Shown: positions 27,001-30,000 of the stretch, one piece after another
How positions within the stretch are numbered: the first letter of the stretch is position 1
How the letters are laid out: each line of letters begins with the position of its first letter
Source: Candidatus Micrarchaeia archaeon
GTDB taxonomy: Archaea > Micrarchaeota > Micrarchaeia > Micrarchaeales > CABMGC01
Length of the DNA: 31,065 nucleotides
Reading direction: 5' to 3'
Assembly: GCA_049966395.1 (NCBI GenBank)
Contig: JBMFUT010000005.1
Coordinates: 1-31,065, forward strand
Program-made: the position numbers

Positions 27001-30000
27001 GAAACAATCGATAGAATCGCTGAAAAATACGCCAAGGAAAAGAGTGTCGAGGAAGCTGAAATAAGGAAAGAGGAGAGCGGATTCAACGATGTGATTGCAG
27101 GCATCGAAAGCACTGAAAAAGAGGCGTATGAAAAGGGCCAAGAGGACGAATACGGCGAGATTTACAACGATATTTACAACAAAGGTTACAACGAGGGTTA
27201 TGCCCATGGAAGCAACGACGGGTATGGAAGAGGGTACAACGACGGTTACAACAAGGGATACAATGACGGTTATAACAAGGTGTAGGATGATTGCATGCAG
27301 ATAATAAAATTCTTTGACGCCACCAACACTCTCAAGTGCAGGGCAGACTCATTCGACGACCTTTATCTGCTACAAAGGATAATAGCAAACGGGGACGGCA
27401 TCGCAGCAAAGAGCTTTAGGAGGTTCAAGGCGAACGAAACTGACACAGGCTCCCAGAAGGAGGTCTTCGTCAAGATATCTGTAGAGAAGAGCGAGCTTGA
27501 CAAGACATCTGGCAAGCTCAGGCTCACTGGCAAGATACTTGAAGGCCATCCGGAGGAATTTGTCAAGATTTCAAGCTACCACACCATAAATGTTGGAATC
27601 GGCGACGTCATAGAGATACAAAAAACGGAATGGAGGCATTACATAATAAGGAGGTTAAAGGAAGCGGTAGAGGAAGCAAAAAGGCCTCGCTTTGGAGTGA
27701 TAGCCATGGATGACGAGCTCGCTACAATAGCTTACATACGCGGATATGGCATAGAGATAGTAGCTGAAATATACAGCCACTTGAGCAAGAGAATGAAGGA
27801 CAAGGAGTACGCAGAACAGAGGAAAAAGTATTTTGACGAAGTGATTGCAGCTGCGACACGCCTCGAAGTTGACAATATTGTGGTGGCAGGACCCGGATTC
27901 ACGAAAGATGACCTCAAGGCTTACATGGAGTCTGAACGCATATCCTTGAACAAGAAGATTTCTTATGTGCATGCAAGCAGTGCCGACAGGGCGGGGATCA
28001 GAGAAGCGATGCAGAGCGAGGATGTTGCAAGGCTTCTCGAGAGCGAGCACCTAAAGAAGGAATTCGCGCTGCTCAACAAATTCCTCGAATCGCTGCGTGT
28101 TGGCGCTGCATTCTACGGAGAGGAGCAGGTTGGAGGGGCATTAGAGTCGTTCAAGGCGGGAGTAGTGCTCGTTAACGATGACATGATAAACAATGCAAAA
28201 ACCCAGGAGCTCCTCGAAAGAGCAGACGCACAAAAGGTTAAAATAGAAATATTCAATTCTGACGATGAAGCAGGCGCGCAGCTCAGGAATTTCAAAGGCA
28301 TCGGCGCAATTTCGAAATCGGTGTTGCAGCAATAGCCGGTTAAAGATTATGCTGCCAAATGAAGGTTATGTTGTTATGTTGAGAAGCTGCATTCCTGGAC
28401 TGCAGCTATTGAACCATGCGGCAGCAATCTTGTCCACGCCGTTGTTGAGCGTCACAGAGTAAACGCCGTTTGTCGGGTATCTTGTTGCGCCCTGACCGTG
28501 CCATGCTGAATTGCCACTGACGTTCATCCATACATTGGAGCCGTATTCCTGGTAATATACCGCCATGCCGTCATCGGTCTCAAAAGTTATCCCGACAGTA
28601 GTCGTGGAAGGGAGGTAGATTGGCGCGTAAGCTATTGATGCAGTCGTGTTGTAAGGCGATGAGCAGTGAACGTTGTTGTTGTTCAGGCTAGAGTCGGTAA
28701 TTGGAAATGGCTGCACTTTTATGCCCATGAATGTTGCGCCTTGGTAGCTTGGAGTGCCGAATGCGTAGTATATTCTGGAGTTGTTTGAGTATGCAACCCA
28801 GTCGCCATTCTGCACAACCGAAAAAGAGCTAAATGGCGCCGGCACGCCGGAATACGACGGGCTGTTAATATTTGGAGGGCTGACGAATGATATCACGCTG
28901 AATATCACTTCTTCCTTGTTTGTGGGGGAGGTGCTGAAAGAGCCGCCATAAGAGGCGCTTGTGTAAGAGCAGCCGCCCTGCAGCACAGAAGATATACCAG
29001 AGCTACAAGACCTGCCGTTGATAGTGTAGAAGCCGTTTACAAGTATGCCTTGGTTTGGCGAATATCCCTGCATGGGCACTATGCAAGTCGAGAACTCTCC
29101 CGGAAGGACGAACGCGGGGTCGCACACGCCAGTGCCTGTGTGCCCGGATATCGAGACGCTCATGTTGGTTATGTTTATTGCGGTGCTCTGCGAATTAGTA
29201 ATGGAAAACGTGAGCAAAGAGTAGCTCCCATTGACGTAGAAGTTGAGGAAGTTGCATGTGGGGCCGCTGAATGCTGTGCACGACATAGGAAAAGTTGTCT
29301 TAGGAAGCACTGTTACAAAAAGCAATATGCTTATCACTATTCCTAAGGATATCATGAGGAAGCTGTAGGTCGACATGAATTCTATTGATGATTGCAGTCG
29401 CATCGTTTAGATAACGCGCAACATTTATAATAAGTTTGCTTATTGCTGATGCCCAAGCGAACAGTAGCGAGCTGCGCAAAATTATTATAGCAAGAGATTG
29501 GTATCTAATATTATGATAGGAAAGAACCAAATGTACTTCAGGCCAGTTAAGGCTCTTGGCCAGAATTTCCTTGTCAATGAAGGAGTAGCCAGAGCGGAGG
29601 CGGCGCACGCAACAGGTAAGAATGTGCTAGAACTGGGGCCTGGATACGGCACTCTTACTGCGGAGCTTTGCAATGAAGCAAAGCACGTTACAGCAGTTGA
29701 GAAGGACGCAAATCTCTACATGCTCCTCAAGGCAGAAATGAAATGCCCAAAGTTGAAGCTAATAGAAGGCGATTTCTTCGCCATGAGCGACGAGGAGCTT
29801 GAAATAGCAAACACTGACATACTGATATCGAACATACCTTACAACCTTTCCAGCAAGATGATTGAGTGGCTCTCATTGCATGATATAGAGGCGGTGCTCT
29901 GCCTGCAGAAGGAATTCGTCGAGCACATGCTTGCAAAGGAGGGCACAGACAAGTATTCCAAGCTGAGCGTGATAAGCAGCCTGACTTTCAGCATAACCAA

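Follow-up and report, generated by a model that had tools for sequence, protein, structure and literature searches.

Absence and probable loss of the ribosome-splitting ATPase ABCE1 across the archaeal order Micrarchaeales, with aRF1 and Pelota retained

ABCE1 is generally regarded as essential for ribosome splitting throughout archaea and eukaryotes. The stretch of DNA analysed here (the window, 31,065 nucleotides of a contig of a Candidatus Micrarchaeia archaeon) carries a gene for Pelota, and the initial annotation had claimed that this genome keeps both Pelota and aRF1 and has no ABCE1. The locus raises the question of whether the ATPase has truly been lost and, if so, how ribosomes are recycled. 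The Pelota (aDom34) gene (27295..28335, plus strand) is an intact, uninterrupted 346-aa ORF, in which the Pfam domains eRF1_1, eRF1_2 and eRF1_3 were matched with 72.8, 57.7 and 41.2 bits, respectively. It scored 198.7 bits on the TIGR00111 'pelota' equivalog model (cut-off 177.65) and merely 62.4 bits on the aRF1 model, and GGQ is absent from its sequence. By sequence, the closest solved relative was Pelota of the ribosome-Pelota-ABCE1 model (3j15_A, E 1e-40). An AlphaFold model resting on a 32-sequence alignment had a mean pLDDT of 86.9 and a pTM of 0.70, and its top Foldseek match was 3wxm, archaeal Pelota with EF1alpha (TM 0.81). Three eRF1-like domains and a Pelota fold without GGQ place the protein in the Pelota/Dom34 family, and sequence and model together indicate that the gene encodes a working Pelota. 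The aRF1 gene was found on another contig of the genome (C2:23443-24753, minus strand; TIGR03676 398 bits, cut-off 234.7), and its product carries GGQ and the C-terminal LRY. Both retained genes are thus present as annotated.

The window's genome (693,655 bp in 34 contigs, 89% complete) was searched for ABCE1 with two models. PF04068 (Fer4_RLI, the Fe-S domain of ABCE1) gave no match in this genome even at E<=10, and the best score on NF009945, a full-length ABCE1 model with a cut-off of 469 bits, was 73.1 bits, from one NBD within a frame of 302 aa. The genome has five ABC ATPase loci, all of which encode single-NBD proteins, in agreement with the initial annotation: two DrrA-like ATPases and one split ABC gene, each adjoining an ABC-2 permease; SufC, between SufBD and SufS; and an orphan ABC ATPase at 31 kb of contig C2. 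The orphan was considered as an ABCE1 derivative and ruled out, as it is of the SaoA/nitrate/sulfonate/taurine-transporter type (204 bits). Moreover, 18 large Walker A ORFs of this genome were scanned, and 16 of them fell into known families unrelated to ABCE1, with assignments to MCM, LonB, A-ATPase, Rad50-like, Cdc48, T2SSE secretion ATPase, Obg-like, RFC, SRP54 and Cdc6 proteins. A P-loop ORF in a 782-aa frame (C2:66162-68507), weighed as a replacement, proved HerA/DUF87-like by language-model features (score 0.99), and the 'Walker A' of C4:18812-20287 is a spurious chance motif. The gene for aIF5B was not found in this genome either, though it is present in 69 of the 70 other Micrarchaeales genomes sampled. 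Therefore, this bin, for which incompleteness had already been noted as a caveat, is by itself weak evidence for a loss of ABCE1.

The same result was obtained across the order. PF04068 was not matched above its cut-off in any of 101 Micrarchaeales genomes, 72 of them at least 90% complete; four sub-threshold matches reached at most 17.2 bits in 37-73-aa frames, and the four archaeal control genomes were all matched. On NF009945 at E<=1e-30, none of 71 Micrarchaeales genomes (24 of family f1, 46 of family f3 and the window's own) gave a match; in the 18 other families 71 of 80 genomes did, mostly scoring 600-860 bits, in frames of 570-620 aa. Families f10 and f11 have divergent ABCE1s with intact Fe-S cysteines; the model still picked these up with 304-479 bits, so divergence of that size does not escape it. 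Five near-closed Micrarchaeales genomes, three of them single-contig, yielded at best 96.2 bits, from a single NBD in 241-370-aa frames, the other matches, in frames of 70, 679 and 1115-1148 aa, not exceeding 31.4 bits. The best ABCE1-model scores in Micrarchaeales lie mostly in 240-512-aa frames, and neither the Fe-S domain nor the two NBDs plus hinge in a chain of about 590 aa (at least 469 bits) were found. An ABCE1 altered beyond recognition, a concern raised at the outset, was checked with a profile (A1) derived from 20 ABCE1s of Micrarchaeota, among them the divergent ones. Its best match in the 101 genomes was an ordinary single ABC domain with 86.8 bits. Of the matches, 150 were listed and 364 were not; all but one of the listed ones lay within a single NBD, the exception (63 bits) running from model position 80 to 500 in a frame of 250 aa, and the Fe-S part was covered by none of them.

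Control genes were sought in a sample of 151 genomes, made up of 70 Micrarchaeales, the window's own and 80 of other orders. Pelota was recovered in 151/151 and aIF5B in 149/151; S24e, which is a contact of ABCE1, was likewise kept in all 151, and a co-loss of S24e with ABCE1 was looked for there without any being found. Since control genes were present in 99-100% of the genomes, incompleteness costs about 1%, not 100%. The counts include two unpublished genomes (G027 and G068), and no claim depends on them alone. A reading in which ABCE1 is present and escaped the searches, because of gaps in assembly or binning or because of extreme divergence, can appeal to the incomplete bin of the window and its missing aIF5B. 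It would have to account for 101 genomes with no match, single-contig ones included, for controls recovered in nearly all of the same genomes, for the strong scores of the divergent f10 and f11 proteins and for a phylum-specific profile that returned ordinary NBDs among the matches listed, and we regard it as highly improbable. Taken together, these results strongly support the view that the whole order has truly lost ABCE1 while keeping aRF1 and Pelota. Most likely, Micrarchaeales do not carry ABCE1 in a hidden, split or diverged form, and the gene was lost in their common ancestor.

The initial annotation had also stated that the other orders of the phylum have ABCE1, which was true of 71 of the 80 genomes examined and failed in nine: G111, G127 and G179 (f11), G123 and G148 (f16), G136 (f15), G138 (f13), G156 (f18) and G163 (f9). 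The best ABCE1-model matches in these nine genomes were single NBDs with at most 89.5 bits. In the ten ABCE1-bearing genomes looked at, Pelota adjoins ABCE1, frequently in the gene order IleRS - RFC small subunit - Pelota - ABCE1. This arrangement made two of the losses visible. In G136, RFC-Pelota is kept in the middle of a 99.7 kb contig, with two small ORFs where the family-mate G121 has ABCE1 and its adjoining small genes. In G156, the immediate neighbours of Pelota are a pair of genes that in G143 are located just past ABCE1; one of the pair also adjoins ABCE1 in G121. In both genomes, ABCE1 is thus gone from a conserved neighbourhood with Pelota that lies mid-contig, which indicates that it was lost more than once in the phylum.

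Pelota itself is kept throughout Micrarchaeales, as had been claimed, but it is not unchanged. Its family-model scores were 155-232 bits in Micrarchaeales and mostly 197-303 bits elsewhere, and the deficit was located in the C-terminal domain (eRF1_3), which in the window comprises residues 251-346 (28045..28335, plus strand). This domain scored 19.8-41.2 bits in Micrarchaeales (n=10, one of them unlisted at E<=0.01), compared with 55.8-90.5 bits in other orders with ABCE1 (n=10) and 44.5-72.6 bits in other orders without it (n=6); the central domain scored higher in Micrarchaeales than elsewhere. In the alignment, a conserved loop is two residues shorter in Micrarchaeales and the C-terminal ..LR[FY] is gone. 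Within the last 20 residues of Pelota, LR[FY] was found in 0/43 Micrarchaeales (27 of family f1, 15 of f3 and one of f2) versus 15/16 members of other orders. The C-terminal tail of the window's Pelota, GIGAISKSVLQQ (28297..28332, plus strand), occupies the usual site of the GILRY-type ...LR[FY] motif of Pelota and aRF1, and this motif (..A.LR[FY]), described in PMC2613156, is absent from it. All six aligned Pelotas from ABCE1-less genomes of other orders keep LR[FY], so the change in Pelota is no necessary consequence of ABCE1 loss, and it represents a single evolutionary event.

Several observations bear on how this domain should be read. In the AlphaFold model, pLDDT was 79-93 from residue 261 onwards, while residues 241-260, among which the domain begins, had 65-69. 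The modelled C-domain superimposed on that of human Pelota (5eo3) with an rmsd of 1.6. Mean identity of the C-domain within families of Micrarchaeales was 0.50-0.51, compared with 0.53-0.58 in the other two domains, and between families it was 0.40. With identity close to that of the other domains and a confident model, the domain is not decaying; it is predicted to be folded, is kept within the order and is distant from the family consensus. Nor are Micrarchaeales simply fast-evolving, since full-length aIF5B matches overlap in score (634-728 bits in Micrarchaeales versus 603-791 bits elsewhere). The C-domain of aRF1 showed no degradation in Micrarchaeales, its eRF1_3 scores being 61-85 bits against 72-88 bits in ABCE1-bearing relatives, and GGQ and L[RK][YF] were present in all 13 Micrarchaeales aRF1s examined.

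The other translation factors suggest that ribosomes are still being taken apart. Among 70 Micrarchaeales genomes, S24e, Pelota and RqcH were each kept in 70, aIF5B in 69, aIF6 in 66 and aRF1 in 60. The substrate of RqcH is the large subunit that has already been split off with peptidyl-tRNA. Because RqcH is kept in 151/151 genomes, most of which (including the window's) gave two half-gene matches, stalled ribosomes are probably still dissociated. The window's genome also encodes aIF1 and a single aEF1alpha. The gene for aIF6, which is an anti-association factor, is present in 144 of the 151 genomes but was not found in the window's genome, in the three genomes of genus g6 (3/3) or in G044. 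Members of the group live attached to host archaea, and a host could in principle supply ABCE1 protein to the attached symbiont and render its own gene dispensable; that the gene was lost repeatedly, in several of the phylum's symbiotic lineages, would fit this. However, such protein import is without support, the order has mostly kept the other universal translation genes examined (see the counts above, with aRF1 the lowest), and a foreign ABCE1 would need to fit the diverged C-domain of Pelota. We therefore consider supply by the host very unlikely.

The initial annotation had concluded that another, unknown factor must take over from ABCE1, and candidates were sought accordingly. In the window's genome, the bacterial ribosome recycling factor RRF (PF01765) was not found (best 16.5 bits, cut-off 29.7), nor was HflX (best 35.3 bits), and no twin-NBD protein was seen there or in the Micrarchaeales searches. 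Four genes of translational-GTPase type are present, namely aEF1alpha, aEF2, aIF2gamma and CysN. The last, an EF1A-like GTPase on contig C24 that occurs in 62 of 70 Micrarchaeales and in 0/80 genomes outside the order, was tried as an Hbs1/eRF3 analogue and rejected, as it is CysN, directly after CysD (306.5 bits). A GX3-repeat ORF (26824-27285) lies 10 nt upstream of Pelota and matches Yae1_N with 21.9 bits, below the cut-off; it was dismissed as a general partner of Pelota, because, of 30 loci, only those of this genome and its nearest relative have it. No conserved unknown gene was found beside Pelota in 30 Micrarchaeales loci.

A non-homologous, unrecognised splitting factor would constitute a third system beside RRF/EF-G and ABCE1, possibly acting with the remodelled C-domain of Pelota. 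Such a factor would agree with the view that ABCE1 is essential, with the ongoing splitting that RqcH retention implies, and with a Pelota C-domain that is altered yet conserved in the order, as a new partner might require. Against it, none of the searches among RRF, HflX, GTPases, twin-NBD proteins, Pelota neighbours and P-loop ORFs gave a candidate, and a new factor would be needed separately by every other ABCE1-less lineage. We consider it rather unlikely, and a factor-poor route through aRF1/Pelota is at least as likely; the annotated loss stands, and the unknown factor proposed with it is only one possible reading. The broader proposal that recycling and rescue proceed without ABCE1 in Micrarchaeales and, independently, in several other Micrarchaeota lineages, either by an undiscovered factor with a re-tooled Pelota or with no dedicated splitting ATPase, is one that we put forward tentatively.

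The explanation that we favour, with somewhat better than even confidence, is an ancient loss of ABCE1 followed by ABCE1-independent recycling through the retained A-site factors. Since RRF, HflX, a twin-NBD protein and an extra translational GTPase were not found and aIF1 is present, we infer that dissociation by aRF1 or Pelota together with aEF1alpha is the best-supported route. Under this model, terminated and stalled ribosomes would probably still be taken apart without ABCE1, the likely agents being the A-site factors aRF1 and Pelota, brought by the single aEF1alpha. Dissociation would be slow and ATPase-independent, and initiation factors of the aIF1 type might then keep the subunits apart. 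The C-terminal, partner-binding domain of Pelota was remodelled in the same lineage. A slow, factor-poor route of this kind might be tolerable for symbionts that grow very slowly and contain few ribosomes, although we know of no organism living on one. The unaltered C-domain of aRF1, the LR[FY] motif kept by Pelota in six ABCE1-less genomes of other orders and the missing aIF6 speak against this explanation. Reportedly, Shoemaker and Green found that Dom34-Hbs1 splits ribosomes without Rli1, slowly. Moreover, according to PMC5711452, eIF3, eIF1 and eIF1A recycle ribosomes in vitro without energy at low Mg2+.

A search of the full-text literature on DPANN and Micrarchaeota found no publication on an archaeon without ABCE1, in line with the novelty that had been claimed. 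Micrarchaeota gene loss was the subject of a 2025 study (PMC12892359), whose main text does not contain the words 'translation...', 'RLI' or 'COG1245', and its supplementary tables might list the family. If recycling indeed proceeds without ABCE1, the supposed indispensability of this ATPase outside Bacteria would no longer hold, whether with a new factor or without any. A whole order without ABCE1, together with the repeated losses in sister lineages, amounts to a natural knockout, which opens a testable question: what the minimal ribosome-splitting machinery is, and what ABCE1 adds to it. Members of the group are amenable to co-culture with their hosts, which makes ribosome profiling, cryo-EM and in vitro splitting assays feasible. 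As a caution, ABCE1 is unsafe as a universal archaeal marker gene.

Among known systems, bacterial RRF/EF-G and HflX resemble the situation in Micrarchaeales in that the job is done without ABCE1, but neither RRF nor HflX was found in the window's genome. The energy-free recycling by eIF3, eIF1 and eIF1A and the reported action of Dom34-Hbs1 are cases of splitting without ABCE1 by initiation or A-site factors, the kind of route that we propose here as the most likely; they are known in vitro only and as a minor route. Archaea, to our knowledge, are without eIF3. From the canonical archaeal set of aRF1 or aPelota, aEF1alpha and ABCE1 (3j15, 3wxm), Micrarchaeales differ in that the ATPase is gone from the whole order and Pelota is without its GILRY-type motif. 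They share with that set aRF1, Pelota and aEF1alpha and a Pelota fold that matches at TM 0.81, and the adjacency of Pelota and ABCE1 is kept in other orders of the phylum.

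We found no match for the initiation factor aIF6 (PF01912) in G000, the genome to which the window belongs, nor in the Micrarchaeota genomes G012, G028, G034 and G044, which cover genus g6 (three of three) and genus g13 (one of one). This factor was present in 144 of the 151 genomes of the phylum sample, and it may be a second 'universal' ribosome factor that was lost in the subclade of G000. The factor aIF5B (TIGR00491), which was present in 149/151 sampled genomes, was not found in the G000 bin, and here an assembly gap is the most likely explanation.

At E<=1e-40, aRF1 was not found in 10 of the 70 genomes of the order Micrarchaeales (G004, G033, G037, G043, G063, G073, G075, G085, G087 and G091), all of which are multi-contig, and this miss rate was far above that of aIF5B or Pelota. 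The aRF1 matches of G149, G176, G147, G139 and G172 were split at model position 174 and lay within frames of 857-981 aa, which suggests an intein in these genes. We also observed that the universal GGQ motif is replaced by GGS in the aRF1 genes of G123 (locus L160) and G148 (locus L161), two ABCE1-less genomes of family f16, which belongs to another order. The aRF1 proteins of two further ABCE1-less genomes, G127 (L164) and G179 (L167), were short, at 378 and 365 aa, respectively, and the aRF1 model aligned with them only up to position 315 of 403.

The acidic 153-aa ORF upstream of Pelota (window 26824-27285, + strand) carries C-terminal GYNxGYNx (GX3) repeats and a weak Yae1_N match, ends 10 nt ahead of the Pelota gene, and is limited to G000 and its closest relative. 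On the other side, a protein of 345 aa, whose N-terminus is hydrophobic and pilin-like and to which no Pfam family could be assigned, is encoded on the - strand (window 28366-29403), and its convergent arrangement with Pelota was kept in 22 of 30 loci of the order.

TBP of G000 appears to be encoded by two separate genes with a single repeat in each, one of 106 aa in the window (25691-26011, +) and the other in a 119-aa frame on contig C17 (4506-4751, -). We detected no TBP with both repeats in G000. At the position of the window gene, relatives carry ORFs of about 95-115 aa.

In G000, an ORF at window 11137-12222 contains an internal run of N, and an ABC ATPase gene on contig C7 (9914-10476, -), which adjoins an ABC-2 permease, is split into frames of 85 and 302 aa and is possibly frameshifted.

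Contig C24 of G000 (locus L114) carries a sulfate adenylyltransferase pair, composed of CysD (803-1591) and a CysN-like protein (1600-2790), with an adjoining GT4 glycosyltransferase. This CysN was found in 62/70 genomes of the order, in contrast to 0/80 outside it.
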